Virus record (IMG/VR): IMGVR_UViG_3300034069_000749
Coordinates: 1 to 42,918 of that record
DNA length: 42,918 nucleotides
Direction: 5' to 3' (one strand)
From: a virus
Below are positions 1,920 to 42,918 of this stretch, in pieces. A model generated the notes under the pieces. The model had not been told where the DNA came from and ran no database searches. It worked only from the letters and a program-made list of their open reading frames with translations. Position 1 is the stretch's first letter; every line of letters starts with the position of its first letter. The position numbers were made by a program, and so were the translations under genes.

Positions 1920-2190
1920 CGAACTGGCGGACGCGCTTTTCGATCAGCCCTACCCACAGGAATTCAGGGGTGTGGGTCGCTTCATCCCAGGTAAGGGTCA
2001 ACGTCGCGTTGTCCGAATCAAGCTAATGAAGAAAGAGCTTCGCACTCTGGCTCGTGACGCGGCTAAGCAAGCGCTGCTCGACGCGGCAGAGGCGTTCATC
2101 CACCTGGAGTCATTCGATCCAGATGCCGAGGACCCTGTTGGCTTCCTCCATGCCCGCGCTGAGCAGATCGGCACTCGGGATGGCGACTAA
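1906..2190 (+). CDS. Hypothetical protein P3b (paralog of 41289..41504)
   Basis: ATGcccagtccTGA overlap with the upstream gene. MPSPDELADA..., LARDAAKQALLDAAEAFI and ARAEQIG match MATSDELADN..., LARDAAKHALLDAAEEAI and ARTGQIG. Confidence 0.7.
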   Translation: MPSPDELADALFDQPYPQEFRGVGRFIPGKGQRRVVRIKLMKKELRTLARDAAKQALLDAAEAFIHLESFDPDAEDPVGFLHARAEQIGTRDGD

Positions 2191-3397
2191 GACCCGAGGC
2201 AAGGGCGAGGGCAGCCTGTACAAGGATGCGCGCGGCCTGTGGACGGCGGTGATTGAGTTGCCGCCGCGTGATGGGAAACGGCGGCGGAAGACGATCCGGT
2301 CGCGGGATAAAGCGACGGTGATGGACAGGCTGCGGGAGACGCAACGTGAGCTCGCGGAACGTGGTGACCTGCCGACCGCGGATCAGACTGTCGCGCAATG
2401 GTTCGGCTACTGGTACAGCCAAATCGTGTTGAAGGAGGTGCGCCCGAAGACTGCCGGCGGGTACAGGTCGATCATCGACCGGCATGTCATCCCCGAGATC
2501 GGCACACTCCGCCTCGCACGTGTCACGCCGACGTCTATCCGCCGCGTCACCGATCGAATCATCAACAACGGCGGGGCAGCATCATCCGCACTCAAAGCAC
2601 ACCAGGTCATGTCCTCCGCATTCGAGGCAGCACTCCGCGAAGGACGCATCAGCCGCAACCCCTGCAAGTTGATGGCCGCACCACGCAAGAACGTCACCAA
2701 ACTCGAAACACTCACCCGCACCGAAGCAAAACAGATCATCGACTACGTCGCAGCCGACCGCGAATACGGGGCACGCTGGGCAATGGCGCTCCTCACGGGG
2801 GCACGACGAGGTGAGATCCTCGGCCTCGAACGGGACCGCATCACCGACGTCATCGACCTGTCCTGGCAGTTGCAGCGCCTCTCAGTCGGGCAACGGACCA
2901 GCACCGGCAAGATCGGTGAACCCGTCGTCCCAAACGACTACGAATACCGGCACCTTTACGGCGGCTACTACCTCACCCGCCCCAAATCGCGTGCAGGGTG
3001 GCGCATCATCCCACTCGTCGAACCCCTCAAAAGCATCCTTGAGCTGCACATGGATGCCAACCCTGACGGACAATTCGGGCTCGTCTTCACCCGCAACCAA
3101 CGCCCCGTCGACCCCGACTACGACTCCAAACTGTGGACCCGCGTACTCGCAGCATCCGGCATCCAAAAACACGTCCGCCTCCACGACCTCCGACACACAG
3201 CCGTCGACCTCCTCTACGCAGCCGGACTCCCAGAAGAAACCATCATCCGCATCGTCGGACACTCAGCCGTGTCCATGACCCGCGCTTACGCATCTCGAGA
3301 CATCGACCGGTTGCGCGCTGGCATGGAAAAGTTCAGCGACTACTTCACCCGACCAGACGATTCACGTTCAGGAACACCCGAAGCAATCTCTGGCTGA
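2180..3397 (+). CDS. int: Tyrosine integrase (site-specific recombinase, phage integrase family)
   Basis: MATKTRGKGEGSLYKDARGLWTAVIELP N-terminus typical of actinophage Int. Catalytic signature: ARRGEILGL (Arg), HDLRHTAVD (H-x-x-R), GHS (His), Tyr in TRAYAS. Confidence 0.92.
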   Translation: MATKTRGKGEGSLYKDARGLWTAVIELPPRDGKRRRKTIRSRDKATVMDRLRETQRELAERGDLPTADQTVAQWFGYWYSQIVLKEVRPKTAGGYRSIIDRHVIPEIGTLRLARVTPTSIRRVTDRIINNGGAASSALKAHQVMSSAFEAALREGRISRNPCKLMAAPRKNVTKLETLTRTEAKQIIDYVAADREYGARWAMALLTGARRGEILGLERDRITDVIDLSWQLQRLSVGQRTSTGKIGEPVVPNDYEYRHLYGGYYLTRPKSRAGWRIIPLVEPLKSILELHMDANPDGQFGLVFTRNQRPVDPDYDSKLWTRVLAASGIQKHVRLHDLRHTAVDLLYAAGLPEETIIRIVGHSAVSMTRAYASRDIDRLRAGMEKFSDYFTRPDDSRSGTPEAISG

Positions 3398-3731: not shown

Positions 3732-4241
3732 TTAGGAATCCCCATCCTCATCGAAGGCGGATTCCGGGGTGATCTCAGATGCAGCTTTGTCTTCGTTCCC
3801 AGCGTCGATTTGCTCTGCAGTGAGTTGGTCGTTTCGGCTGTGAAGCCGTGTCACGTTTGTAGCCGCTGCCTCCGACATTGCGGTCGTATTAGCCGCAAGT
3901 CGAGCGTTTGAATCTTCAATGAGGACGTTCAATCCACCCATTCGATTGACCGCTTTCCGGGTCAAGTCGTCCGGGTCGACTTCCAGAGCGTGCGCTATCA
4001 AGCCGAGCTGCGTGATGTTGATGTCTCGTTCACCCCGAAGTATTCGGTCCATCGTCATCTTTGGCATGCCCGAAAGCTCGGCGAGGCGTGCGGAAGACAT
4101 CCGCGGACTCTTCGCCCCTTTCTCTGCCCGAATTTCGGCAGCCAGGGCGGCGTTCATAGGTGAGTTCTTCGTATCCACTTGGACGACTTTATCTCCATAT
4201 GGCGTCGAAGTGGAACTATTTGGGCCAGAAGCCTTGCGCAT
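3732..4241 (-). CDS. XRE/CI-type HTH repressor
   Basis: HTH_XRE signature SSARLAELSGMPKMTMDRILRGERDINITQLGLIAHALEV. Divergent from the Cro-like gene. An alternative start at M29 (4157) cannot be excluded. Confidence 0.85.
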   Translation of the reverse strand: MRKASGPNSSTSTPYGDKVVQVDTKNSPMNAALAAEIRAEKGAKSPRMSSARLAELSGMPKMTMDRILRGERDINITQLGLIAHALEVDPDDLTRKAVNRMGGLNVLIEDSNARLAANTTAMSEAAATNVTRLHSRNDQLTAEQIDAGNEDKAASEITPESAFDEDGDS

Positions 4242-4269
4242 GGTCCAAACAGACTATAAAGTAGTCCAC
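4242..4269. promoter_or_regulatory. 28-bp divergent switch region with overlapping -10-like hexamers and a short palindrome
   Basis: ggtccaaacagACTATAaagtagtccac. TATAGT on the minus strand (4253-4258) overlaps TAAAGT on the plus strand (4257-4262, 7 nt before ATG 4270). Palindrome GACTA-taaag-TAGTC. Confidence 0.5.
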
Positions 4270-14324: not shown

Positions 14325-15560
14325 ATGGCGACCGTCACGGTCAACATCGCCGGCGAAACAACCACCGCCACCTACGGCGCGGCAAGCCAGACGACCCGGC
14401 CCGTGCTTCCCGAAATCACCTGGGCATCACTCAACCCCCAGCCCGGGGAAAGCATCGACACCGTGCTTGCCCGCATGACCAGCAACGCTGTCGTCGTGTT
14501 CCCCCCCGGCGACTTCAGCTTCGGCGGCAACGCACACTCCGGCTACTCGATCCTGTCCAAAAAAGCTCAAGGGGCCCGCGGCACACTCGACGCAGACGGC
14601 AAGAAACTCACACGGTGGGTACAAACACCCAACTCGTTCAAAACCGGGCCCATGCCGCCCGCAAACGCAGGAACCGCCGTCAGGCTCGGGTCCAACGAGC
14701 TACAGTCGGGGCCGCAAACACCCACCCTCGTCGCCGACCTCATCATCGTCGGAGCCGAACAAGTACTCAACGGCACCCCACTCAACCGGGCCGGCCTCAT
14801 CGTCTACGGCGGCGAAAAACCCATGCTCGACAACGTCGACTTCCTCGGCGTCTCCCGCGGCTCCGGCAACAACCCCGCAACCGGCGAAACCATCAGCGTC
14901 AACCTCCTCCGCGCCAACAACGTCACCGTCCGCGGCATCCTCTCAGACGGACGCGACACCGCAACCGGCAAACGAGTCGCTGGATCCGCCATCAGTATCA
15001 ACGCCTGCACCAACGTCGTCGTCGAAAACAGCACCTTCCAATACTCGCTCGTATCCGGCGTCACCAACTCCTCCGCTGGCTCAGGCGCTATTTACGCCAA
15101 CAGCTCTCGGAACATCACTTACAGGAACAACACCATCGCCCACAACGCCAACGTCGTCATGGCATCCGGGCAACGGTTCTCTGGCATCAACGGCGAAAAC
15201 TGGCTCGGCGACAACCTCATCGAAGGCAACACCATCACCGTCGACTGGGGCGAATGGAACGCCGCCCACTTCACCGTCGCCTCCAACATCACCGAAGGCG
15301 CACAAGCCACCTTCACCTACCGCAACAACACCGTCAACGACGTCGGCTACCAAGGCCGCAACAAAGGCGCACTGGTCATCAACCTGCCCTGGAACTACGC
15401 AGGCGTCCCCAACACCATCCAGCCCGCCAATCTCACCGTCATCGAAAACGGTGTCACCAAAACGGCGCGACTACTGCAATCCACACCACCCGCCGGATGG
15501 AATATCGACCCGTCCCGCGAATACATCCTCCTGCGCGAAGGCGCAAAACCGACCACGTAG
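14325..15560 (+). CDS. Right-handed parallel beta-helix protein (pectate-lyase fold; putative polysaccharide depolymerase or tailspike-like)
   Basis: Repeated coil signatures NVTVRGIL, NVVVENSTF, NITYRNNTI, NLIEGNTI and FTYRNNTV. Confidence 0.7.
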   Translation: MATVTVNIAGETTTATYGAASQTTRPVLPEITWASLNPQPGESIDTVLARMTSNAVVVFPPGDFSFGGNAHSGYSILSKKAQGARGTLDADGKKLTRWVQTPNSFKTGPMPPANAGTAVRLGSNELQSGPQTPTLVADLIIVGAEQVLNGTPLNRAGLIVYGGEKPMLDNVDFLGVSRGSGNNPATGETISVNLLRANNVTVRGILSDGRDTATGKRVAGSAISINACTNVVVENSTFQYSLVSGVTNSSAGSGAIYANSSRNITYRNNTIAHNANVVMASGQRFSGINGENWLGDNLIEGNTITVDWGEWNAAHFTVASNITEGAQATFTYRNNTVNDVGYQGRNKGALVINLPWNYAGVPNTIQPANLTVIENGVTKTARLLQSTPPAGWNIDPSREYILLREGAKPTT

Positions 15561-15568
15561 GAGACGTC

Positions 15569-16153
15569 ATGGCGCTTTGGCCCTCAGACGTCCAAATCTG
15601 CAACCTGATCATCGACGACGGCCTCTCCTCGACCGGCATCGAAACGACCACGTTCGTCACCGTCAAACTGGTCCTCCAAGGAACCAGCCGGCTCGTCTGG
15701 TCAGATGGCACCGAATTCCTTCCACTCCCCGACAAGCTCCGCAACCCCGACGTCATCCCCGTCCCCGTCACCGACCAGACATGGCGTGACGGCGGCGGAA
15801 ACACGTACACCGGGTTCGCGTACGACGTCACAGTGGAGCGTTACAGGGCCACCGCATCAACTGCCTACACAGTGCGAGTGCAGCCCACCAGCACCGACCT
15901 CACACTGACCATCAGTGAACAGTTCGACGGGTCAGTCGGCGAACCCATCATCATCCCCACTGTGCACGTAGGAACCACCTACACGATCGCCAACCAGTCA
16001 TCGGTCGCGATCACCCACGGCCTCGGACGCAGACCGCTGCCGGTCTTCTACGACACCAACGGTGCACCCTTCGACACCGACTACACAGCAACCACCACAA
16101 GCTTCACAGCCACGTTCCCCACCCCAATCAGCGGGTCAGTCGTTCTCATCTAG
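15569..16153 (+). CDS. Hypothetical protein with an ITHGLG-type C-terminal domain (tail-fibre associated)
   Basis: ATG 15569 after GGAGAC. The C-terminus SVAITHGLGRRPLPVFYD...TATF resembles the C-terminus of the next gene. Confidence 0.65.
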   Translation: MALWPSDVQICNLIIDDGLSSTGIETTTFVTVKLVLQGTSRLVWSDGTEFLPLPDKLRNPDVIPVPVTDQTWRDGGGNTYTGFAYDVTVERYRATASTAYTVRVQPTSTDLTLTISEQFDGSVGEPIIIPTVHVGTTYTIANQSSVAITHGLGRRPLPVFYDTNGAPFDTDYTATTTSFTATFPTPISGSVVLI

Positions 16154-16161
16154 GAGCCACC

Positions 16162-16914
16162 ATGTCCCGCAAATTCCTGCTTGGCCTCGACGTCAACAAC
16201 CAGCGAATCGTCAACCTCGCATCGCCGTCCGCGTCGACCGACGCCGCCAACCGTCAGTACGTTGACGACAAAGTCAACGGGCTGTCCTGGAAAGACGAAG
16301 TCCGCGCCGCGACCACCACCAACGGGGCGCTCACAACCGCCTACGCCGCCGGGCAGGTCATCGACGGTGTCACCCTCGCAACTGGCGACCGGATCCTCGT
16401 CAAAGACCAGACGACACAGACCGAAAATGGCATCTACGTCGTCGCCTCGAGCGGTGCACCCACACGCGCCACCGACGCCGATGCAACGACCGACCTCAAC
16501 AACGCCACCGTCAAGGTCACGTCCGGGACCACCAACGCCAACGCCACCTACACGCAGACCACCCAGAACCCCACCGTGGGTAGCTCGGCACTCGTATTTG
16601 TCGCAGCAGCCGGCGGAACCACCTACACCGCAGGCACCGGCCTAACCCTCACCGGCAGCACATTCGCCGTCGACCCCACCTCCAGCGGCCTCGCCAAACG
16701 GTACGCAACCAACGTGCCCACCACCGGCACCACAGTCACCATCACCCACAGCCTCGGCACCACCGACATCACGGTCGCCGTGTACGACACCAGCACGGCC
16801 AACAGCTTCGTCCTCGTCGAAGCCGACGTCATCGTCACCGGAGTCAACACACTCACACTCGGGTTCGCAACCACACCCACCACCGGCCAGTACCGCTGCG
16901 TCATCACCGCGTAA
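16162..16914 (+). CDS. Tail-fibre-like protein
   Basis: AGGAG RBS. The N-terminus LGLDVNNQRIVNLASPSASTDAANRQYVDDKV is the widespread phage tail-fibre N-terminal motif. Gly/Thr-rich fibre region. Confidence 0.7.
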   Translation: MSRKFLLGLDVNNQRIVNLASPSASTDAANRQYVDDKVNGLSWKDEVRAATTTNGALTTAYAAGQVIDGVTLATGDRILVKDQTTQTENGIYVVASSGAPTRATDADATTDLNNATVKVTSGTTNANATYTQTTQNPTVGSSALVFVAAAGGTTYTAGTGLTLTGSTFAVDPTSSGLAKRYATNVPTTGTTVTITHSLGTTDITVAVYDTSTANSFVLVEADVIVTGVNTLTLGFATTPTTGQYRCVITA

Positions 16915-16924
16915 GGGGCAACAC

Positions 16925-18892
16925 ATGTCAGTCCCGCGCCGCGGCACACAAAACACCGTCTACGGAGACTCCGCACCCCGAGCACTCCGCGACTACCTTG
17001 TGCTCCGCGCGGTGACCCCGTGCCGCTTCGTCATCCTCGGCTCATCAACCCCCGCCGGGTCCACCGCCACCACCGTCGCAAACCGTGTCGTCAACCGGCT
17101 CCTCGTCGCAATCCAGTCCGCATACCCTGCACCATCCGGGACAACCGAGCAGACCATCGGAACACTCGACACCACCCCGTCAACCGCAGGTGGCATCCAG
17201 TTCTACAACGGGGCAGTGTCAGGCAACACGTCAAGCAACTACGCCGACAGCACCACCATCACCAAAACCGTCGCAATCGCCCCCCGGGTCATCATTCACT
17301 GGGTTGGCTCCAACGACTACGCAGCCAACGTCGCCCCGGCCACCTACAAGGCGAACCTGAAGTCCGTCATCGACTCCATCGACGCGCAACTCACAGCACC
17401 CCACATCCACGTCCTCATCCAAGGACACGAACGCTTTGACGTCACCGGGCGCACCTACACCTGGGCTCAGTACGGACGGGCACAAGACGAACTCGCTGCC
17501 ACCCAGACCCTCGGCAACGTGTTCAACGTCGACATCTCAAGCTACTTCTACCCGCTCGGCGTCGCACCCTCCACCCAGTACGGCACCGACACCCTCGGCC
17601 TCATGAACGCCGACAAAATCCACATGCTCGACGCCGGCCACGCACTCATGGCCGAAGCGATCGCACGCCAGCTCGGCATCATCAACACGCCCCAGGCCGC
17701 CCTTGTCCTCGCCGACACGACCCCGCCGACCGTCCCTGGCACACCCACCGCTACCGCCGGCACCACGTCAGCATCGCTCACCTGGGCAGCCTCCACAGAC
17801 GCCAACGCGCCTATCACCTACCTTGTGTACTCGTCCGCTGACGGCTACACCAACGCCATCGGAACGACCCAGGCGACCAACTACACCGCCACGTCGCTCC
17901 CGGCCGGCACAGCAGTGTCATTCAAGGTCGCCGCCCGAGACCCCTCCAACAACACGTCCGCGCAGTCCGCTGCGTCCAACGCAGTCACCCCGACCGCGTC
18001 GACTGGCGCAGACACCACACCCCCTGGTGTCTCCACCCTGAGCGCGAAGCCGAAGCCAGCCAGCGCGCTGCTCACATGGTCTGCGGCCACCGACGACGTC
18101 GCAGTGACGAACTACCGGATCTTCCGAGACGGCACAGCAGTCACCACCGTGGGAAACGTGCTCACCTACGCGGACAGCGCCCTGACCAACGGCACCCGGT
18201 ACAGCTACACCATCGCCGCAATGGACGCCGCCGGCAACATCGGTATCCAATCAGCCGCAGCCCTCGTCGTCCCCGGCCAGATCGTCGACAACTTCGACCG
18301 CACTTCCAGCGCACTCTCCGGGCAGACAGCAGAGACAGGCGAAACCTGGCTCGCACCAATCAGCCACACCCTCGACATCCTGCCCACCGGACTCGTCAAA
18401 CGGAACTACGCCACCGACGCATCCGCCACCACAGGCCGCGCACTCAATATCGTCACCGCACCTCTCTCCGCATCCGGCGGATTCAAATACGCCATCAAGC
18501 TCGGAGCAGCACCCACCGCAGCAGGAGTCGCATCCGGTGGCCCCGCATTCGAATCCACCGCAGACGGATCCAACTTCTACTACCTCGGACTCCGCGCATC
18601 CACCTCAAGCATGGTCTACGCCTTCTTCCAAATCCCCACCCTCGGAGGCGGCGCATCAACCCGAGGCGCATCCGGCGTATCCACCATCACCCCACAAACA
18701 GGCGACCTCATCGAGATCGTCCGCACCACAGCCAACCCCACCGCCGTATCCCTCTACGTCAACGGGGCATTCGTACTCACCACCGGCACCACCTTCGCCA
18801 CACCCTCATCGTCCAACGCCTACATCGGCATGTACGAAAACGGTGACGCCGTCTTCGAATACGACTCCATCAGCTTCACCCAAATCCCCTAA
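16925..18892 (+). CDS. SGNH/GDSL-type esterase fused to two FN3-like domains and a C-terminal lectin/LamG-like domain
   Basis: Blocks VILGSST, NGAVSG, HWVGSNDY and DKIHMLDAGH. FN3-like SASLTWAAS..ITYLVYSS and ALLTWSAATDDVAVTNYRIFRDG. Confidence 0.7.
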   Translation: MSVPRRGTQNTVYGDSAPRALRDYLVLRAVTPCRFVILGSSTPAGSTATTVANRVVNRLLVAIQSAYPAPSGTTEQTIGTLDTTPSTAGGIQFYNGAVSGNTSSNYADSTTITKTVAIAPRVIIHWVGSNDYAANVAPATYKANLKSVIDSIDAQLTAPHIHVLIQGHERFDVTGRTYTWAQYGRAQDELAATQTLGNVFNVDISSYFYPLGVAPSTQYGTDTLGLMNADKIHMLDAGHALMAEAIARQLGIINTPQAALVLADTTPPTVPGTPTATAGTTSASLTWAASTDANAPITYLVYSSADGYTNAIGTTQATNYTATSLPAGTAVSFKVAARDPSNNTSAQSAASNAVTPTASTGADTTPPGVSTLSAKPKPASALLTWSAATDDVAVTNYRIFRDGTAVTTVGNVLTYADSALTNGTRYSYTIAAMDAAGNIGIQSAAALVVPGQIVDNFDRTSSALSGQTAETGETWLAPISHTLDILPTGLVKRNYATDASATTGRALNIVTAPLSASGGFKYAIKLGAAPTAAGVASGGPAFESTADGSNFYYLGLRASTSSMVYAFFQIPTLGGGASTRGASGVSTITPQTGDLIEIVRTTANPTAVSLYVNGAFVLTTGTTFATPSSSNAYIGMYENGDAVFEYDSISFTQIP

Positions 18893-18906: not shown

Positions 18907-19029
18907 ATGTTCGCAGGCATCATCAGCCGCGACCACGGATGCCCCTGGCCCGACACCGGCATGAGACCAATCGGATACGACGGGCACGGTGCACCGCTCT
19001 ACGAATGGCAGGTAGATCGTGAGCAATAA
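18907..19029 (+). CDS. Possible 40-aa ORF (not in the ORF track)
   Basis: ATG 18907 lies 6 nt after GGAG. High third-position GC. Overlaps the HNH start by 11 nt. Confidence 0.3.
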   Translation: MFAGIISRDHGCPWPDTGMRPIGYDGHGAPLYEWQVDREQ

Positions 19030-19291
19030 AGGCAGAGGCAGCGCACAAGACAAGCGTGACCGTGCTCGCATCCGTGCAACCGGAGCTGCATGCCACATCT
19101 GCGGCCAACCCATCGACTACACGCTCGGCTACCTCGACCCAATGTCATTCGTCGTCGATCACATCGAAGCCTTAGCACGCGGAGGGGCCGACCACATCAG
19201 CAACAAAGCAGCCGCACACCGCACATGCAACAGCACCAAGAGGGCTCGCGCCTATGCCCCCACCATCAGGCGTTCCGGCGCACTCAAATAG
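19019..19291 (+). CDS. HNH endonuclease associated with terminase/cos packaging
   Basis: CHICGQPID...VDHIEALARGGADHISNKAAAHRTCNSTK, immediately upstream of the terminase genes. Confidence 0.85.
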   Translation: MSNKGRGSAQDKRDRARIRATGAACHICGQPIDYTLGYLDPMSFVVDHIEALARGGADHISNKAAAHRTCNSTKRARAYAPTIRRSGALK

Positions 19292-19742: not shown

Positions 19743-21177
19743 GGCTGCACGGCACGTGAATATCCCGAAAGGGATTGTGACGACGGCTTGGCCCCGCGTC
19801 GTTGCTCAGTGCGAGAAAATGGGTGTCACTTTCGATTCGTGGCAGCATGGAATCGGCTCTATCTCCCTCGGGAAGCGCAAGGACGGCAAGTACGCGGCCA
19901 CGGTAGGTGGTGTCGTCCTTTCGATCCCCCGACAGGTCGGCAAAACGTTCATCGTCGGCATGATCGTGATCGCTCTGTGCATCATTCACCCTGGGCTGAC
20001 GGTTTTGTGGAGTGCCCACCGCACCCGTACCGCTTCTAAGACTTTCGGGTCGCTCAAGGGCATGACTTCGAAGAAAAAGATCAAGCCGTACATGCTTGAC
20101 CCACGGAACACGAATGGTGAGCAGGAAATCCGCTTCCGTAACGGTTCGATCATCATGTTCGGAGCTCGGGAGCAGGGCTTTGGTCGTGGTTTCGACGAGG
20201 TCGACATAGAGGTGTTCGATGAGGCGCAGATTCTCACCGAGAAGGCGCTCGAGGACATGGTTGCTGCGACTAACCAGTCGCGGCAAGAAGCTGGTGCGCT
20301 TCTGTTCTTCATGGGCACGCCACCGCGCCCAACTGACCCTGGCGAAGAATTCACGAACCGGCGCAAGAAAGCGCTGGACGGTACTGCGCCGAACATGGTC
20401 TATGTCGAGTTCTCTGCCGACGAGGATGCTGACCCGGATGATCGCAAGCAGTGGTCGAAAGCAAACCCGTCCTTCCCATCCCGGACTCCTGTGGAGTCAA
20501 TGGAGCGGATGCGGGAGAACCTCACGGACGAGGATTCTTTCAAGCGGGAGGCGCTTGGGATTTGGGACGCGGTTACTTCTAGTCGCGTTATTGATGAGGT
20601 CACGTGGAAACGGCAGGCCGATCCTGCGTCCATGCCAATCGAGCGGCTTACGTTGTCGCTCGAGGTGCCACCGGGACGTAAGTGGGCTGCTGTAGGCCTT
20701 GCCGGTAAGCGTGCTGATGGTCGTTGGCATGTGGAGTTGGACGAAATGCGCAACGGGGTTGACTGGATTATCGGTTACGCGGTGGATAAGGCTGCGAAGA
20801 ACCGGTTGCACGCGATCGTGGCTGACGAGATGTCCGGTCTGGTCGAGAAGCGCGGGGATAGGCACTTCCTGATCGGGACCGACCTGCTCGTGACGCTCGC
20901 GGCGGCTGAGGGGCGGGATATGGCTATCGCTTGCGCGAAGTTCTACGACGGTATTTATGACCGGACCGTTTCGCATACTGACCAGCAACAGACCAACGTC
21001 GCTTTGTCTCTTGCCACAAAACGGCCACTGTCTGGTGGCTGGGCGTGGAACCGCAAGGACGCCACCTCGAATATCTCCCCGATTGTGGCGGAAACCCTTG
21101 CTCTTTGGGGCGCTCAGAATGACAACGTAATCCGTCCGTCGAGGCGGACTGGATCTAGGACGGCGGTGATTCTTTGA
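19699..21177 (+). CDS. terL: Terminase large subunit
   Basis: Walker A-like SIPRQVGKTF, then VDIEVFDEAQ (Walker B), then a nuclease domain. ATG 19699 lies 9 nt after AGGAGG; the start is uncertain by up to 20 codons. Confidence 0.9.
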   Translation: MPKSAMGSSTPRLSEAARHVNIPKGIVTTAWPRVVAQCEKMGVTFDSWQHGIGSISLGKRKDGKYAATVGGVVLSIPRQVGKTFIVGMIVIALCIIHPGLTVLWSAHRTRTASKTFGSLKGMTSKKKIKPYMLDPRNTNGEQEIRFRNGSIIMFGAREQGFGRGFDEVDIEVFDEAQILTEKALEDMVAATNQSRQEAGALLFFMGTPPRPTDPGEEFTNRRKKALDGTAPNMVYVEFSADEDADPDDRKQWSKANPSFPSRTPVESMERMRENLTDEDSFKREALGIWDAVTSSRVIDEVTWKRQADPASMPIERLTLSLEVPPGRKWAAVGLAGKRADGRWHVELDEMRNGVDWIIGYAVDKAAKNRLHAIVADEMSGLVEKRGDRHFLIGTDLLVTLAAAEGRDMAIACAKFYDGIYDRTVSHTDQQQTNVALSLATKRPLSGGWAWNRKDATSNISPIVAETLALWGAQNDNVIRPSRRTGSRTAVIL

Positions 21178-22595
21178 GCGACAAGCTGACCCTCAAACAG
21201 TTGTCTGACGACGAGAACGCTGTGCTGAACCACCTGATTGAGCAGTTGGATGCGAAGACTCCGCGAAATCTGCTCCGTTCTTCGTATTACGACGGCCGGC
21301 GTGCAGTCCGGCAGATCGGGACTGTCATCCCTCCGCAGTACGCCAGCTTGGGGCTCGCTCTTGGGTGGACGGCTAAGGGTGTCGATGGGCTTGCGCGTCG
21401 CTGCAACCTTGAGAAGATGGTTTGGCCTACGGGCGATCTTGATTCTTTAGGGATGCAGGAGCTCGCAGAGGACAACTTGCTTTTTTCGGAGACGAACCAG
21501 GGCGAGACCGATTCGCTCCTGCACGGTGTCTCTTACCTGATCACCACCGCTGGTTCTGCCGGTGAGCCGAAGGCGTTGATCCACTCGAAGGACGCCCTGA
21601 ACGCCACTGGCGACTGGAATGTGCGTACCCGCAAGCTTGACAACCTGCTTTCAGTGACAGCTCGTGACGGCAACAAGATCACCGGCTTTGTTCTGTACCT
21701 GTTCAACCTGACGATCAGCGCCGAGAAGGCCGCTGATGGATGGGCTGTGAACAAGCAGCCCCACACTTGGGGTGTTCCCGCTGAGCCGATGGTTTATGGT
21801 CCCCGTTCGTCGCGTCGGATGGGTAAATCGAGGATCACGCGGCCCGCGATGGGTCTGCAAGATGCTGCACTCCGTGCCCTGGTTCGTCTCGAGGCGCACA
21901 TGGACATCTACACGATTCCGAAAATGATTCTGCTGGGTGCCGACGAAACGATCTTCAAGAACGCTGATGGCACCATCAAGGACTCGTGGCAGGTCGCTCT
22001 GGGACGCGCATTTGGTATCCCGGATGACGATGACCCACTGTCACGCAACCCACGCGCTGATGTAAAGCAGTTCGCGGCTGAGTCACCGTCACCGCATCTG
22101 GCTGACCTAAACACGTTGGCAAAGCTGATGGCCCGAGAGACGGACCTTGGGGACGCTGACTTTGCGCTGACGGATATGGCTAACCCGACGAGTGGTGATT
22201 CGTACCTTGCTGGGAGCCAGAACCTGATTTCTGAGGCTGAGACGACGACTGATAACTGGTCGCCGGCTGTTCGTCGCACTGTGGTGCGCGCACTGGCTAT
22301 CCAGAATGGAATGTCCGCTGTGCCGGCTGACTGGTCTGGGATTCAGCCGAAGTGGCGGGACGCTCGGTACATTTCGCGTTCTGCGGCTGCTGATGCCGGT
22401 GCGAAGCAGATTGGTGCTGTGCCGTGGCTTGCGGACACTGAGGTTGGCCTTGAGCTCCTGGGGCTCGACGAGCAGCAGATTAAGCGTGCTCTTGCTGACA
22501 AGCGTAAAGCGGCTGGGCGTGCTGTCCTGGCTGCCCTGACGGCTCCTGCAGCGCCTCCCACGGTCACTCCGGTGCCTGATGCCGTCCCCGCTTGA
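21174..22595 (+). CDS. Portal protein
   Basis: 473 aa directly after TerL (TTGA coupling); SPP1-type actinophage portal N-terminus LRSSYYDGRRAV. Confidence 0.85.
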   Translation: MSDKLTLKQLSDDENAVLNHLIEQLDAKTPRNLLRSSYYDGRRAVRQIGTVIPPQYASLGLALGWTAKGVDGLARRCNLEKMVWPTGDLDSLGMQELAEDNLLFSETNQGETDSLLHGVSYLITTAGSAGEPKALIHSKDALNATGDWNVRTRKLDNLLSVTARDGNKITGFVLYLFNLTISAEKAADGWAVNKQPHTWGVPAEPMVYGPRSSRRMGKSRITRPAMGLQDAALRALVRLEAHMDIYTIPKMILLGADETIFKNADGTIKDSWQVALGRAFGIPDDDDPLSRNPRADVKQFAAESPSPHLADLNTLAKLMARETDLGDADFALTDMANPTSGDSYLAGSQNLISEAETTTDNWSPAVRRTVVRALAIQNGMSAVPADWSGIQPKWRDARYISRSAAADAGAKQIGAVPWLADTEVGLELLGLDEQQIKRALADKRKAAGRAVLAALTAPAAPPTVTPVPDAVPA

Positions 22596-35020: not shown

Positions 35021-36193
35021 GTGACAAACGTGCTGTACGGGAACCTGCTCACGGGGTTGATCGGCGGGTACATTCCCTTCCTCACTGCTTCTCTCTCATG
35101 CCGCTTGAATGCTCCCGGGACAGTCGAAGTGACCGTCGATCTGAACGATGACGCGGTGGCACTGCTAGACCTGAAGAACAATGCCGCGCCCAGGCAGGCG
35201 TACCTCGCTTGGGAAGAGAACGACGTCGTTCTCGAGGCCGGCCCGATCTCGGGGCACAGCTTCGACGTCGACACCGGCCAGTTGACGATCACAGCTTCTG
35301 GTCTCTGGTCGTGGTTCGATGACCGGGTAGCACTACCCACCAAAGCGCTCTCTAGCCCGTTTTTCATCAGCGACCCGAACACGTTCGACACCCTCATCCC
35401 GAACCCTGCACTCGACACGGTTTTCACGAACACGTCGTACGCCAACATGTACAAGGGGCTCGTTCAGCAGGCCATGCAGTGGCCGTCCGGGTCGCTGCCG
35501 ATCCTTTTCCAGCCTGACGACACCGGGAGCTCGTCTCTGACGGTGAACGGTGTTGACGTGCAATACGTGGGCGATGTTCTGCGGGATATCAACCAGCTCA
35601 CCAACGGGCCCGACCTTGAGTTCACCCCATCACGAACATCTGATCGCCGGTCCATTCAGTGGACACTCCGGTCAGGTACCACCGCAAAACCTGACCTGGG
35701 TGCGCTCAACACCTTCAACTGGGATCTGTCCGTCGACTCGCCGCGGGCAGAATCGTTGAAGGTCGACGTTGACGGTTCGATGCGGGCCAGCCGAGTGTGG
35801 GCAATTGGCGGCAAATCTTCGGACACAGCAATCATCGTCAGCGCTGCCGACCCGACACTGACCAACACGGGTTTCCCCATTTGGGAACGCGTTTTGTCTG
35901 ACCGGAACGATATTTCCTCCGCGACGTTGCTGCAGTCGTACGCCAACGAACAGGTGCGGTTGGGCAAGTCGACGACCGAAACGTGGTCGTTCAAAGTGCA
36001 AGCTAACAAGAGCCCGAAGCTTGGCGAGTACCGGGTGGGCGATTACGCGCAACTGACCATCGGTAAGGACAACCCGTACATTCCGCAGGGCATCTACCTG
36101 CGCAGGATTCTGTCGATGGCAACTGATCAGGATGCGTTGTGGGTTTCGATCACTACAGGGGAGGTGTATTCGACCAATGGGGCAGCAGTCTAA
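35021..36193 (+). CDS. Minor tail protein (Tal-like baseplate protein by position)
   Basis: GTG 35021 lies 5 nt after AAGGAG; 390 aa. Confidence 0.65.
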   Translation: MTNVLYGNLLTGLIGGYIPFLTASLSCRLNAPGTVEVTVDLNDDAVALLDLKNNAAPRQAYLAWEENDVVLEAGPISGHSFDVDTGQLTITASGLWSWFDDRVALPTKALSSPFFISDPNTFDTLIPNPALDTVFTNTSYANMYKGLVQQAMQWPSGSLPILFQPDDTGSSSLTVNGVDVQYVGDVLRDINQLTNGPDLEFTPSRTSDRRSIQWTLRSGTTAKPDLGALNTFNWDLSVDSPRAESLKVDVDGSMRASRVWAIGGKSSDTAIIVSAADPTLTNTGFPIWERVLSDRNDISSATLLQSYANEQVRLGKSTTETWSFKVQANKSPKLGEYRVGDYAQLTIGKDNPYIPQGIYLRRILSMATDQDALWVSITTGEVYSTNGAAV

Positions 36194-36971
36194 AGGTGAG
36201 GGTTTCGAGTATCAGGCGGATTTGAGGCGGGCGGATCAGCGGGCGGCGCGAAGGCTCGCGCGTCCGACGCAGACGCAGAAAGATGGTGCGTGGCGTAAAC
36301 CTGTCCACACTCCGAACAGTGTGACGGCGGACGCTGGCATGGCTTCGATCGGTGCCAGGACGAACACGGTGACGAATTCACCGGTGCCGTTGTACATTGA
36401 CGCGGCCGGCAACCTCGGGGTGTCCGCTTCTACGCGAGCACGGAAGAACATCGGCTCGGATTACAAAGTGGACATGGCGAAGTTCTTGGCCATCGGCCTG
36501 AAGAACTGGTCGTACATCGACAACCCGGCGGCTACCGGTATGGGCCCGATCGCGGATGACCTCGATGCCGCAGGGTTGAAAGAGTTTGTGATCTACAACC
36601 TGGACGGCTCCATTCAGGGTATCCGCACGGACACGCTGCTCATGGGCCTGTGGTCAGCGTACGTGCAGTCCAGGACCACGACCCTTGCTCGCATTGCAAA
36701 CCAGGCGTACCAGACGCAGACCGTGACCGGGATGGCGGCACTGACGCTGGGTGGCACGAAGCAGTACGCGATTTCGTGGCCGGCGGCTTTCGCTGACGCG
36801 AACTACATGGTTGTCCCCACCGTTTACTCCACTGGCGGTCTTCCTGTTGCCGGCGCAACGGCTGCCGTAATTCAGGGCACGAAGACAGCTACGGGTTGCA
36901 CCGTCCAGGTGAACGCGTCCGTCGCCATTCTTTCAGGTCAAACGCTCGTCGTTGAGGCGACGCACATTTAA
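36177..36971 (+). CDS. Tail-fibre protein with a peptidase S74 (intramolecular chaperone) domain
   Basis: STRARKNIGSDYKVDMAKFLAIGLKNWSYIDNP...GPIADDLDAAGLKEFVIYNLDGSIQGIRTDTLL matches the S74 pattern. Confidence 0.65.
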   Translation: MGQQSKGEGFEYQADLRRADQRAARRLARPTQTQKDGAWRKPVHTPNSVTADAGMASIGARTNTVTNSPVPLYIDAAGNLGVSASTRARKNIGSDYKVDMAKFLAIGLKNWSYIDNPAATGMGPIADDLDAAGLKEFVIYNLDGSIQGIRTDTLLMGLWSAYVQSRTTTLARIANQAYQTQTVTGMAALTLGGTKQYAISWPAAFADANYMVVPTVYSTGGLPVAGATAAVIQGTKTATGCTVQVNASVAILSGQTLVVEATHI

Positions 36972-37123
36972 GGACCGGAGAACTCGAAATCATCCGCTGC
37001 GCATTCGTTTGAGCAGTAGATAACTCCGAACGCGACCACTTTGTGATCGGTGGTGATCGGCTTCCCACACACCCCGCACCAACGTCGAGGTCGGGGCTGC
37101 AGGAAACGCCGCCACCAGTTCAC
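36968..37123 (-). CDS. Small zinc-finger protein (51 aa), second gene of the reverse-strand operon
   Basis: GTGA coupling with the SGNH gene stop (37120-37123). CGVCGKPI...YCSNEC. The stop overlaps the tail-fibre stop (TTAA). Confidence 0.55.
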   Translation of the reverse strand: MNWWRRFLQPRPRRWCGVCGKPITTDHKVVAFGVIYCSNECAADDFEFSGP

Positions 37124-37764
37124 GAGGTGGGCAGAGACGCTGCCTGGCGAATGTAGACGCGCATGCGAGATGCGACGCGGGTGTTCGTCACGGTAGTCGG
37201 GTGCACGCCATCCACGGATGCATTGGTGCCCCACGCGTTGTTGTAGGCCCGCTGGAATGAGAACGGGTCCACGTACAGGTAGTTGTGGGTGACGGCCATG
37301 TCGATCAGTGTACGGTTCTGCGTCACGCCCGCTGCTCGGCGGTTCACGTGCGTGCGACTGTCGTCTTCGATGTTCGACGGCGGCAGGGCGAGGATGAGCA
37401 CGTGCTTAGCCTGAACTTTATTGGCGAGGGCAACAATGTTCGATGCGACGGTGCTTTCGGGGACCTGCTGGGTGACGTCGTTGGTTCCGAGCTCGACGAC
37501 GAGGACGTCGGCATCAGAGTGGGGCGTGGATGCGGCGAGGATCTCTGCCGATGTTTTGCCGCTGATGGCCGTCCCGCCGACGCTCTGCAGTCCGTCGTCG
37601 TTGAGCTGGTAAAGCCAGGAGTCGTCTCGGGCGGTGATGGAGTCGCCTCCGTAGGTGAAGGTGATGGGGTTGTCGTCTGTTGCGCCGGCGCTGGTGCAGG
37701 TGGTGAGCGTGGTGGCTGCGATGCCTGCTGCGATCGCGAGTGTGGCGAGTATGGGTTTCAGCAT
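37120..37764 (-). CDS. Secreted SGNH/GDSL esterase lipoprotein
   Basis: Signal peptide with lipobox LTTC. Blocks GGDSIT, GGTAISG, ELGTNDV and DGVHP. Confidence 0.8.
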   Translation of the reverse strand: MLKPILATLAIAAGIAATTLTTCTSAGATDDNPITFTYGGDSITARDDSWLYQLNDDGLQSVGGTAISGKTSAEILAASTPHSDADVLVVELGTNDVTQQVPESTVASNIVALANKVQAKHVLILALPPSNIEDDSRTHVNRRAAGVTQNRTLIDMAVTHNYLYVDPFSFQRAYNNAWGTNASVDGVHPTTVTNTRVASRMRVYIRQAASLPTS

Positions 37765-37793
37765 TTGTGGGCCTGTTTCTGTTCTGTTGGCGG

Positions 37794-37819
37794 TACACTT
37801 TACGAATGACGTAAGTGTA
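37794..37819. promoter_or_regulatory. Inverted repeat in the divergent SGNH / HTH intergenic region (candidate operator overlapping a TAAAGT -10 on the minus strand)
   Basis: tacactttacg-aatga-cgtaagtgta (10 of 11 positions symmetric). gcggtaca is repeated at 37790 and 37826. Confidence 0.45.
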
Positions 37820-37853
37820 TCGCATGCGGTACAGAAAGCAAGTGGGTGTCAGA

Positions 37854-38081
37854 ATGTCCCTCGTGACGGGGAAGAAGAAGGCCATCGATCCGGAGACTGA
37901 GTTGCGTCTTCGGGAGGCTGGTGCTGCCCGGGCTGTATCCCGCGCAAAGGCGGAGACGGCTGAGGCGGCTCTCAGGGATGTTGTCTTGGACGCTCTGGCA
38001 TCGGGTGCGTCGGTTCGTGTTGTTGCTGAGCTTGCTGGTGTTGCCCCGGTGACTGTGGCGAAGTGGAAAGCGAACCGCTGA
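37854..38081 (+). CDS. Small HTH DNA-binding protein
   Basis: C-terminal HTH ASVRVVAELAGVAPVTVAKWK. Followed by a terminator. ATG 37815 is an alternative start. Confidence 0.6.
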   Translation: MSLVTGKKKAIDPETELRLREAGAARAVSRAKAETAEAALRDVVLDALASGASVRVVAELAGVAPVTVAKWKANR

Positions 38082-38100
38082 CCGCCACCTATCTATTTGA

Positions 38101-38132
38101 AACGCCTCCGATTGTCGGGGGCGTTTTTGTTT
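38101..38132 (+). terminator. Rho-independent terminator
   Basis: aacgcctcc-gattgtc-gggggcgtt (9 bp with one G-U pair) followed by tttgttt. Confidence 0.75.
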
Positions 38133-38155
38133 GCCCGAAAACTTTGGAGGACCAC

Positions 38156-38920
38156 TTGCCCAACAACGGTGAACTCGACGCGGCAACACTGCGCGTCCTC
38201 CCCGGGTTCCTGCCCTACGCCGCAGCCAACAACTTCCAAGCGGTGACGTCGACTGACGGATCCAACCTGATCCTTGCCGGCCTGTACACCGATGCCGTGA
38301 ACATGGCTGCTGACTTCGAGGTTGCTTGCCACCAGCCGCTGACCTACGCCGAGTCGTACCGGTCGCTCGCCACCCAGCGTGTGCGTGCGCTCGAGCACAC
38401 CAGGGGCGGGCCGAACGCTGCCACCCCTGGGTACAGCAACCACGGTTGGGCTCAGGCGCTCGACTACCGCAACGGAATCGGCGGCGGGCCCGGGAACACC
38501 ACTTACGACTGGATGCGCGCCCATGCAGGCGATTACGGCTTCGTGGAGGACGTACCCGGGGAGCACTGGCACTGGCACCACCCGTCGACCACGAGCATCA
38601 CCCGGCCTCGCACGACTACCGCCAGCACTGGCGGAACCACCGAACTAGGAGACGACGACATGACCCCCGACCAGGCACAGATGCTTCACGACCTGAATGA
38701 GCGCACCAAGAACATGCGCGACGACATTAACCACCTGCAGGAGGGCACGAGCTCCGATGGCCTGCTCTCGGCGATTGCCGTTGCTTTCCTCAATACCCCG
38801 GTCGATCCGAAGTCAAACCCACCGGTCGGGAAGGTTTATCAGGCTCTCCGTGACGCACGGCAGGGCACGTTCGGCAACCAGTCCCTGCTGAAGAAGATCA
38901 CCAAGAAGCTCGGCCTCTGA
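38156..38920 (+). CDS. Endolysin, peptidase M15 (VanY / D-Ala-D-Ala carboxypeptidase-like) with an unknown C-terminal domain
   Basis: TTG start 5 nt after GGAGG, downstream of the terminator. SYRSLATQ, GYSNHGWAQALD and GEHWHWH zinc-ligand motifs. Confidence 0.8.
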   Translation: MPNNGELDAATLRVLPGFLPYAAANNFQAVTSTDGSNLILAGLYTDAVNMAADFEVACHQPLTYAESYRSLATQRVRALEHTRGGPNAATPGYSNHGWAQALDYRNGIGGGPGNTTYDWMRAHAGDYGFVEDVPGEHWHWHHPSTTSITRPRTTTASTGGTTELGDDDMTPDQAQMLHDLNERTKNMRDDINHLQEGTSSDGLLSAIAVAFLNTPVDPKSNPPVGKVYQALRDARQGTFGNQSLLKKITKKLGL

Positions 38921-38947
38921 CGTTCCTCCGATTCCCAGGGGGGAACC

Positions 38948-39379
38948 ATGCAAACCATCTGGTCTGACACTTCGATTCCGCCTTCGGAATGGAAGTACCG
39001 AAACCTGAAACGAATCGTCCTGCCCACCATCGACCTGCTGTTCGTCCTCGGGGGCGTCCTCGGGGCACTGCACGGAATCCCAGCGATCAGTGACGTGTTC
39101 CCGGGGTGGCCGGCAACTGTCGGCGGCATCGCGTTCGCGTTCGTGGGCGCGGTGTGCCTCGTCGGGGTTGCGATTCCGAAGCTGTGGCAGGTGGAGGTGT
39201 GGGGCAAGTCGATCATTCTTGGGATGATCGTCGGCTACATCATCGCCCTTGCCACCGCTTCGATCATCACTCGCACTTCGGCTGCGTACGTGCTGTCGCT
39301 TGCTGGGATTGCGCTCACGATTGTTGTGTGGCGGTTGTCGCTGCTGGCTGCGGAAGCTCGAGAGCGGAGGGGCTTGTGA
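38948..39379 (+). CDS. Holin-like membrane protein (4 TM)
   Basis: Four hydrophobic helices and a charged C-terminus AEARERRGL; directly after the endolysin gene. Confidence 0.7.
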   Translation: MQTIWSDTSIPPSEWKYRNLKRIVLPTIDLLFVLGGVLGALHGIPAISDVFPGWPATVGGIAFAFVGAVCLVGVAIPKLWQVEVWGKSIILGMIVGYIIALATASIITRTSAAYVLSLAGIALTIVVWRLSLLAAEARERRGL

Positions 39380-42814: not shown

Positions 42815-42918
42815 ATGACTGGGCATTCGGTTGAGTACTTGAACCGCCACGTCGGGCACTGGTTCGCGGTTTGCTCATGTGGCTGGAAGACAAGTGACTT
42901 GGGTTCCTGGTCAGAGGC
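42815..42918 (+). CDS. 5' part of the wrap-around small CDS (continues at bases 96-150)
   Basis: ATG 42815 lies 4 nt after GAGGG. The frame is open to the window end and continues through the repeat copy. An upstream in-frame ATG at 42638 is an alternative start. Confidence 0.4.
   Translation, partial: MTGHSVEYLNRHVGHWFAVCSCGWKTSDLGSWSE
42824..42918. repeat. 95-nt terminal direct repeat, copy 2
   Basis: Identical to bases 1-95. Confidence 0.95.

Follow-up and report, generated by a model that had tools for sequence, protein, structure and literature searches.

Surface-glycan morons and lysogenic-conversion genes, such as those for the AT3 O-acetyltransferase Oac of Sf6 and for GtrABC (PMC3594210), are small accessory units placed between the functional modules of temperate phages. 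Here we describe a unit of this kind in a viral genome from IMG/VR (record IMGVR_UViG_3300034069_000749; the whole stretch of 42,918 nucleotides that was analysed is called the window below). The unit is a cassette of three genes, which encode an SGNH/GDSL esterase, a small zinc finger and, divergently, a predicted helix-turn-helix (HTH) protein, with one control region shared by the two transcription units. Our preferred reading, to which we would give a probability of about 45%, is that the cassette is a locally regulated moron exporting an esterase directed against an ester decoration of the cell envelope, plausibly with an effect on phage adsorption. We found no description of this cassette in the literature; its novelty lies in the unusual cargo and regulatory layout of an otherwise known type of accessory element.

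The cassette resembles the Sf6 and Gtr units not only in position but also in its predicted transcription independent of the late genes, in its mobility between genome positions and in being probably aimed at a cell-surface polymer. It differs from them in cargo, a predicted secreted SGNH hydrolase instead of a membrane acetyl- or glycosyl-transferase, and in possessing a divergent HTH regulator of its own, a palindromic operator and a zinc-finger partner. Another close system is NanS-p, the sialate O-acetylesterase of Shiga toxin (Stx) prophages, which is likewise a stand-alone SGNH-type esterase encoded by an accessory gene in the late region of a temperate phage and acts on the mucin sialic acids of the host animal for bacterial nutrition (PMC10462455). 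However, NanS-p is larger, has other domains and lacks a dedicated divergent regulator or zinc-finger partner, and we detected no sequence relationship between it and the cassette esterase. Virion SGNH deacetylases, that is gp63.1 of the E. coli phage G7C and the receptor-binding proteins of Klebsiella and Curtobacterium prophages (PMC13123978, PMC9862828), share the fold and likely the same activity, de-O-acetylation of a polysaccharide. In contrast to these, the cassette enzyme is only 214 amino acids long, carries a signal peptide and has no tail-attachment domain; it is predicted to be exported from the cell and not to be borne on the virion.

More distant parallels concern mechanism or layout. 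HEF of influenza C virus and HE of coronaviruses are SGNH-fold envelope glycoproteins that remove O-acetyl groups of the receptor; as proteins of eukaryotic viruses they may be regarded as functional analogues of the proposed role, with a likeness of mechanism only. Among phages, T5 Llp and TP-J34 Ltp are lipoproteins acting in superinfection exclusion and are not enzymes, while LysB of mycobacteriophages is an esterase encoded next to the endolysin, with a cutinase-like alpha/beta-hydrolase fold and a gene co-oriented with that of lysin A. What the cassette esterase would share with Llp, Ltp and LysB is to be an exported phage protein acting at the envelope; lipidation is unsupported here, and the SGNH fold, the location on the opposite strand and the Sec signal set it apart from LysB. 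Finally, the face-to-face promoter switches of P2 and 186 resemble the control region of the cassette, where two -10-like elements, separated by 7-14 nt and overlapped by operators, are turned towards each other. Unlike in these switches, the promoters of the cassette are only predicted, and the unit controls an accessory enzyme and not the lysis-lysogeny decision.

The elements of the cassette are the following (positions of the window).

36968-37123, minus strand: zinc finger of 51 amino acids, C16-x2-C19...C37-x3-C41, with a GTG start that overlaps the TGA stop of the esterase gene (GTGA)
37120-37764, minus strand: SGNH/GDSL esterase of 214 amino acids, characterized by Pfam, alignments, AlphaFold2 and Foldseek
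37681-37764, minus strand: signal peptide of the esterase, residues 1-28, from sequence inspection and pattern tests
37765-37853: control region, 89 bp between the two start codons, with a GC content of 48% against 60-65% in the flanks
37790-37797, plus strand: third half-site, GCGGTACA, which together with the half-site at 37816-37823 makes the outer part of the inverted repeat
37794-37819: inverted repeat, TACACTTTACG (37794-37804), AATGA, CGTAAGTGTA (37810-37819), with one bulged base
37816-37833: operator-like palindrome of 18 bp, TGTATCGC-AT-GCGGTACA, with the core GTAYCG-N4-CGRTAC
37854-38081, plus strand: HTH protein, 75 amino acids from ATG 37854, with sub-threshold HTH matches and an AlphaFold2 model
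38099-38133, plus strand: intrinsic-terminator-like hairpin and U-run, 3' of the HTH stop codon and upstream of the probable endolysin start, TTG 38156

The original prediction, made from the letters of the window, had outlined much of this layout: a leftward operon of an SGNH esterase gene and a GTGA-coupled gene for a 51-residue CxxC...CxxxC protein, situated between the tail-fibre genes and the lysis cassette; a divergent gene for a small HTH protein with a terminator of its own; and, between the two starts, an AT-richer region with a near-perfect inverted repeat. We found the unit to be discrete, its position, between tail module and endolysin, to be correct and all of these elements to be present at the coordinates given above.

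The esterase contains the blocks GGDSIT, GTND and DGVHP from which it had been recognized. Its sequence matches the Pfam family PF13472 (Lipase_GDSL_2) with an E-value of 3.4e-14 (54.2 bits; gathering cut-off 32.9) and PF00657 with 30.4 bits (cut-off 23.6). The catalytic residues are S42, G63/G64/G69, N95, D185 and H188; in an alignment of 52 homologues G40-D41-S42 (block I), G64/G69 (block II), G93-x-N95-D96 (block III) and D185-x-x-H188 (block V) are invariant. The AlphaFold2 model has a pLDDT (predicted local distance difference test) value of 91.8, and Foldseek aligned it, with probability 1.0 and template modelling (TM) scores of 0.6-0.7, to SGNH acylhydrolases (4iyj, 3p94, TesA and sialate O-acetylesterase). 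Both the sequence and the modelled three-layer alpha/beta/alpha fold thus assign the protein to the SGNH/GDSL superfamily, as a minimal serine esterase predicted to be catalytically intact.

A signal peptide was called by a rule-based check (n-h-c layout, small residues at -3 and -1): the n-region MLK is followed by an Ala/Thr/Ile-rich hydrophobic stretch of ~19 residues and then by AGA|T, a likely site of signal peptidase I. AxA sites are kept at the equivalent place in orthologues (AANA|D, AEA|A, ATA|A). The original prediction had read LTTC in this segment as a lipobox and the esterase, accordingly, as a lipoprotein; this claim did not hold. With a lipobox defined as [LVI][ASTVI][GAS]C within 35 residues, after an n-region with K/R, LTTC (Cys23) is non-canonical, having Thr at -1, and the PROSITE PS51257 and G+LPP patterns were both negative (P0001, P0002). 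The Cys of LTTC occurs only in the window and in the related locus L003. It is absent from orthologues with 82-83% identity (P0003, P0004), of which P0003 (83%) reads LTTS-AANA, and there is no Cys ahead of the GDS block in P0004 to P0008 or in the phage homologues. The signal peptides of the homologues in Elener, Parvaparticeps, L004 and L012 are Cys-free; gp48 of Sunfish has no signal peptide, and the chromosomal homologues in Curtobacterium are N-terminally anchored. The esterase is therefore probably exported by a Sec-type signal and not lipidated. Separately, we saw that many Curtobacterium homologues (P0012-P0038) have 'TAAC' at residue 18, which fits the lipobox patterns; the hydrophobic stretch in these proteins runs on past that Cys and may be a membrane anchor instead.

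The same arrangement of HTH gene, control region and SGNH gene was observed in eight loci (the window, L003, L005, L006, L007, L031, L032 and L033), with identity of the SGNH proteins down to 43%. All eight loci keep the operator GTAYCG-N4/5-CGRTAC, and the zinc finger is present in seven of them. The surroundings of the cassette are as follows.

Window, L003 and L005: between tail fibre and endolysin
L006: only the tail-fibre side is visible
L007: beside a stand-alone AT3 O-acyltransferase (PF01757, 1.3e-22)
L031: convergent on genes for lysis-type membrane proteins, with a bidirectional terminator between
L032: next to a collagen-like protein
L033: beside a GT61 glycosyltransferase

Wherever late or lysis genes are visible (the loci of the window type and L031) the cassette runs opposite to them. 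The three genes and the palindromic operator thus appear to travel together through eight diverged loci in different neighbourhoods. A scan of IMG/VR with the SGNH alignment returned one informative locus (L012) and five weak ones.

In the control region the mean column identity across five loci is 86%, and the half-sites are invariant. Three GCGRTACA half-sites are present, at 37790 (+), 37816 (-) and 37826 (+). The palindrome occurs once in the whole genome, with 0.02 occurrences expected by chance; among the loci its centre varies (AT, AG, AC, CA) and its arms are fixed. L031-L033 have two GTACCG-N5-CGGTAC palindromes at the equivalent place. A wider regulon of the HTH protein was also considered and rejected, as the genome contains no second palindrome or cluster of half-sites.

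Each arm of the inverted repeat consists of an operator half-site with a TAnnnT hexamer fused to it. The hexamer is TACACT in both arms: the one at 37794-37799 (+) is directed towards the HTH gene, the one at 37819-37814 (-) towards the esterase gene. The motif CGRTAnnnT is found in both directions in all eight loci, the two hexamers facing each other at a distance of 7-14 nt and lying 41-54 nt from their respective start codons. The repeat folds at -20.2 kcal/mol (z = -4.4), and none of 200 shuffled sequences folded as well. Still, we rejected its reading as an RNA hairpin: in L006 and L007 only the outer half-sites are kept and the inner stem, ACG/CGT, is not. Protein binding is favoured over an RNA hairpin because the half-sites are invariant while the centre and the inner stem vary. 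As to the TAAAGT proposed in the original prediction as the -10 element of the esterase operon, the string does exist on the minus strand (37802-37797), but it reads CAAAGT in two related loci, and a strict sigma-70 scan of positions 35800-39200 found no promoter.

The HTH protein has matches to Pfam HTH_23/HTH_28 (E ~0.01, ~16 bits) that are below the cut-offs of ~25, and a match to PHROG 5497, 'HTH DNA binding protein', at 1.2e-4. In its AlphaFold2 model (pLDDT 87.5) a helix of 37 residues (13-49) is followed by the C-terminal HTH helices 54-61 and 65-73, for which local Foldseek matches were HTH domains of recombinase, transposase and LuxR type, with root-mean-square deviations of 0.6-0.8 A but with E >0.3. 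A word-index protein search returned only two close relatives. The recognition helix, GASVRVVAE[LV]AG[VL]APVTVAKWK, does not vary among four sequences, each from a different locus, of which the most divergent is 61% identical overall. This helix is invariant wherever the half-site is GCGRTACA and differs in L031-L033, where the half-site differs too. The conservation of the whole cassette in eight loci and the joint conservation of recognition helix and half-sites argue that the HTH protein acts on the shared control region. Downstream of the gene, the terminator hairpin at 38099-38127 (-20.2 kcal/mol, z = -2.5) is followed by UUUUUGUUU; Rfam gave sub-threshold matches only, on this terminator.

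The open reading frame (ORF) of the zinc finger, with its 4-nt start/stop overlap, is kept in five loci, and the ratio of nonsynonymous to synonymous differences (pN/pS) is 0.18-0.64 at pS 0.5-0.8. The pattern CGxCG-x16-[YFW]CSxE[CH]A is invariant in the homologues; in six sequences the invariant positions are C16, C19, C37 and C/H41 as well as G17, G20 and S38. In L031 and L032 a homologue is found on the other side of the HTH gene and convergent on it, so that the zinc-finger gene stays with the cassette even when moved. All of this points to a real gene. As the ORF is uncalled in public gene sets, a word-index protein search for the zinc finger came back empty, and an exhaustive HMMER search found only generic proteins with tandem CxxCGK...YCSxxC repeats, some with HNH-type C-termini. 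Family matches were all below cut-off: zf-MYND with 16 bits (22.7), DUF2116 with 15.4 (26.8), zf-FLZ with 13 (23.4) and YacG with 16.4 (79); NCBIfam indicated weak similarity to YacG and YdaE. The ligand pattern C-x2-C...[FYW]-C-S-x2-[CH] is that of a treble clef of the FCS/TRASH/YacG type, to which we assign the protein by its sequence. Most simply, it would be a nucleic-acid- or protein-binding module, predicted to be cytoplasmic and translationally coupled to the esterase.

An SGNH gene was also seen ahead of a start-overlapping small gene outside the eight loci. In L004 the small gene (4091-4252) encodes an HTH-like protein of 53 amino acids; in Elener (L001, 6567-6953) it is gp56, a Cys/His-rich protein of 128 amino acids whose start overlaps the SGNH gene. 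These observations suggest that an esterase with a small regulator is a recurrent pairing.

The window represents one entire phage genome, circularly permuted; its first 95 bases (1-95) recur exactly at 42824-42918, and this 95-bp direct repeat at both ends indicates that the contig is circularly closed and complete. As a tyrosine integrase is encoded at 2054-3397, the phage is temperate; it is a siphophage with the cassette inserted antisense between the tail and lysis modules. Other features of the genome are these.

Genes elsewhere in the genome: YqaJ, RusA, HNH (19019-19291), terminase, portal, tape measure and Dit protein
Up to 36971: tail-fibre-like genes, with endolysin and membrane-protein genes downstream of the cassette

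In a length-ranked ORF map the plus strand carries most ORFs and all genes with an assigned function outside the operon, a rule from which the esterase/zinc-finger pair clearly departs. The portal (21174-22595) shares 71% identity with its counterpart in Pitbull, a temperate phage of Arthrobacter. There the last minor tail gene directly adjoins the endolysin gene, and the cassette is absent from this junction. Insertion between conserved modules, absence from a relative and varied neighbourhoods are what one would expect of a moron, and by these features the cassette is classified as a probable moron.

Several details of the junctions were noted as well. At 36968-36971 (TTAA) the tail-fibre gene (+) and the zinc-finger gene (-) end in overlapping stop codons, so that there is no intergenic terminator between these convergent genes. 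At the other side, the longest endolysin ORF starts at GTG 38063 and would include the terminator hairpin of the HTH gene; a likelier start is TTG 38156, with GGAGG at 38146-38150 upstream. Late transcripts heading for the lysis genes would meet the antisense cassette and the terminator of the HTH gene.

The genome is a mosaic: the portal is nearest to that of Pitbull, while the endolysin (38156-38920), the cassette esterase and a tail-fibre-like protein (16162-16914) have relatives in phages of Microbacteriaceae, the hosts being Curtobacterium, Clavibacter and Microbacterium. Relatives of the endolysin were found only in Curtobacterium and Clavibacter phages, and the nearest cellular homologues of the cassette esterase are Curtobacterium proteins with ~45% identity. 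On these two grounds the host is probably a Curtobacterium-like member of Microbacteriaceae. Scans of 185,579 genomes and JGI metagenomes with the operator DNA pattern produced chance matches only, in Bacteroidota and other unrelated contigs, and thus no integrated prophage bearing the cassette; a nucleotide search of the phage collection with positions 36500-38500 gave no match.

The location beside the endolysin raises the question of a role in lysis or egress, where the esterase would loosen or de-O-acylate the wall for the endolysin or for escaping progeny, as a functional analogue of the mycobacteriophage LysB. Both in the window and in L031 the lysis cassette is the neighbour of the esterase. 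In Sunfish a short, signal-less member of the family, without the rest of the cassette, separates the last tail gene from the endolysin gene, and homologues exist in phages with no annotated integrase, such as Elener (none among 66 genes). However, the esterase gene is on the strand opposite to the lysis genes, has a regulator of its own and encodes a Sec signal, and therefore co-expression is not expected by simple operon logic. The secreted homologue in Elener, 52% identical and also without the cassette, is encoded at a distance from the lysis genes, amid non-structural genes of the forward strand. The fold is SGNH and not the cutinase fold of LysB. In addition, the endolysin here resembles an M15 peptidase (VanY, E 0.0084), and peptidases of this type are not known to be blocked by O-acetylation. 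A lysis accessory is, in our opinion, quite unlikely.

The neighbours and relatives of the cassette give hints of the target. In L007 the AT3 gene (1-1017; weak NolL similarity) and in L033 the gene of a GT61 protein of 557 amino acids (354-2027) are each convergent on the HTH gene of the cassette; no informative phage homologues of these AT3 and GT61 proteins were found. It is possible that L007 and L033 represent surface-modification islands. PADLOC-DB defence models matched neither the three proteins of the cassette nor the AT3 protein of L007. In Sunfish and Kithara, members of the esterase family bear the annotation minor tail protein. Moreover, prophage regions of Curtobacterium often encode SGNH deacetylases (PMC9862828), which are also frequent among the receptor-binding proteins of prophages (PMC13123978). 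Together with the neighbouring AT3 and GT61 genes and the relatives among tail proteins, this abundance points to surface glycans and hence to adsorption.

The AT3 neighbour could, on the other hand, be taken to mean that the SGNH protein is the extracytoplasmic transferase half of an O-acylation pair, of the OatA/OafA (AT3-SGNH) or PatA/PatB type, which would receive acyl groups from a membrane acyltransferase and attach them to a glycopolymer of the wall, and that the phage causes serotype conversion by acetylation. SGNH proteins paired with membrane acyltransferases are a general design (PMC7448272, PMC12148441), and in L007 an AT3 protein is indeed encoded directly beside the cassette. The link of an extracytoplasmic SGNH protein to AT3 is seen in L007 only. 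No acyltransferase is seen in seven of the eight loci; in the window, the ORFs of at least 280 amino acids, the capsid-position gene and the tape measure excepted, included no candidate for an AT3 or MBOAT protein. The SGNH protein is unfused, and the structural neighbours listed are hydrolases, with the OatA, PatB and OafA domains not among the 50 Foldseek matches listed. A transferase is thus a doubtful interpretation, and we would hardly favour it.

A host-fitness factor unrelated to adsorption has to be considered too. The esterase is predicted to be a soluble, secreted and minimal enzyme, its nearest cellular homologues belong to plant-associated Curtobacterium, and NanS-p is a precedent for an SGNH esterase as a prophage moron (PMC10462455); the substrates could then be environmental, e.g. 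acetylated polysaccharides of plants or cutin-like esters. Yet family members recur in phages without an annotated integrase and at tail-adjacent positions, and the neighbours of the cassette are enzymes of surface glycans and not catabolic genes. This makes such a role very unlikely in our view.

The original prediction had gone further and paired the cassette esterase with a second SGNH protein of the phage.

16925-18892, plus strand: second SGNH esterase, with fn3 repeats, in a cluster of tail-fibre-like genes and not part of the cassette

Here Lipase_GDSL_2 (8.1e-11) and fn3 (2.3e-8) were confirmed, while the C-terminus, previously described as lectin-like, has no family match. Homologues of the protein occur in phages of Arthrobacter and Gordonia, where their annotation is minor tail protein, tail spike or esterase. 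We also noted that it belongs to a second receptor-binding-like cluster (14325-18892), situated far from the tail module and just upstream of the HNH gene and the terminase gene; the cluster encodes a 411-residue protein without a family match, the tail-fibre-like protein of 250 amino acids (16162-16914), which is 43.5% identical to gp37/38 of Curtobacterium phage Sunfish, and the SGNH-fn3 protein.

According to the pairing, a lipoprotein esterase of the prophage would remove the same ester that the virion SGNH esterase recognizes, giving receptor-destroying superinfection exclusion under control of the HTH protein. In agreement with this, the cassette belongs to a temperate phage, is equipped with a regulator of its own and points against the late genes, and the SGNH-fn3 protein, with its tail-spike or esterase homologues, adjoins a tail-fibre-like gene. 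The failed lipobox patterns and the absence of the Cys from close orthologues speak against the lipoprotein part. Nor did we find support for the pairing itself: between the two SGNH domains the identity is 23% over 90 amino acids (E 0.039), and they have different sets of homologues, belong to different lineages and give no indication of a common substrate. Also, if the virion enzyme itself deacetylates the receptor, as gp63.1 of G7C is reported to do (cited in PMC13123978), prior deacetylation need not block entry. We consider this version of superinfection exclusion unlikely.

We return to the reading of the cassette as a regulated moron with an exported esterase. In the mechanism we propose, the HTH protein, probably a dimer held by its long helix, would bind the palindrome and the extra half-site. 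Since the operator sites overlap the two facing -10-like hexamers, such binding would set transcription both of the esterase/zinc-finger pair and of the HTH gene, and transcription of the cassette would be independent of the phage late operon, which runs antisense through it. The zinc finger would probably serve as a second, nucleic-acid-binding regulator. The esterase would be exported, cut by signal peptidase I after AGA28, and remove an ester, most likely O-acetyl, from an envelope glycopolymer of the lysogen or the infected cell. The likeliest consequence would be changed phage adsorption, that is, superinfection exclusion or prevention of re-adsorption of the progeny.

If the hexamers are -10 elements, the promoters are face-to-face and each 5' leader crosses an operator; the two transcription units would be mutually exclusive, because the facing elements are overlapped by the operators. 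One could speculate that the cassette is then a miniature switch, with face-to-face promoters and one operator set, having the HTH protein on one side and, on the other, a secreted receptor-destroying esterase together with the zinc finger as a counter-regulator. We regard this elaboration as improbable.

A number of observations weigh against the preferred reading or limit it. Among solved structures, those nearest to the esterase are acylhydrolases of Bacteroides that are uncharacterised, TesA and sialate O-acetylesterases (TM ~0.65), and the structure search did not narrow the substrate; nor did the chromosomal homologues in Curtobacterium give a hint of it, as their contexts (aldo-keto reductases, an ABC transporter) are uninformative. 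L007 and L033, whose neighbours point to surface glycans, are short contigs not demonstrable as phage. The Elener homologue and the signal-less copy in Sunfish, both without the cassette, suggest that the enzyme can serve in lytic infection and that its role is not limited to lysogenic conversion. As the strict promoter scan was empty, the facing TAnnnT hexamers may be just part of the operator. Finally, in the window the leftward operon has no terminator of its own, its stop codon overlapping that of the tail-fibre gene, whereas L031 has a bidirectional terminator at this place.

If the cassette does work as a switch, a population of lysogens would be heterogeneous or inducible for de-O-acylation of the surface, and superinfection exclusion would be enzymatic and regulated, with the enzyme reused during infection by integrase-less phages; such a case has not yet been described for phages of Gram-positive hosts. 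The set of regulatory parts, an HTH protein of 75 amino acids, a palindrome of 18 bp and a zinc finger of 51 amino acids, is compact. More generally, should the esterase take an ester decoration off the wall of Curtobacterium-like bacteria, the phage would rewrite the receptor landscape of its host enzymatically and in a regulated manner, by a route distinct from that of the acetyl- and glycosyl-transferases and of the receptor-blocking lipoproteins described to date. This would bear on host range and phage resistance in plant-associated and plant-pathogenic actinobacteria that are considered for phage biocontrol (PMC9862828).

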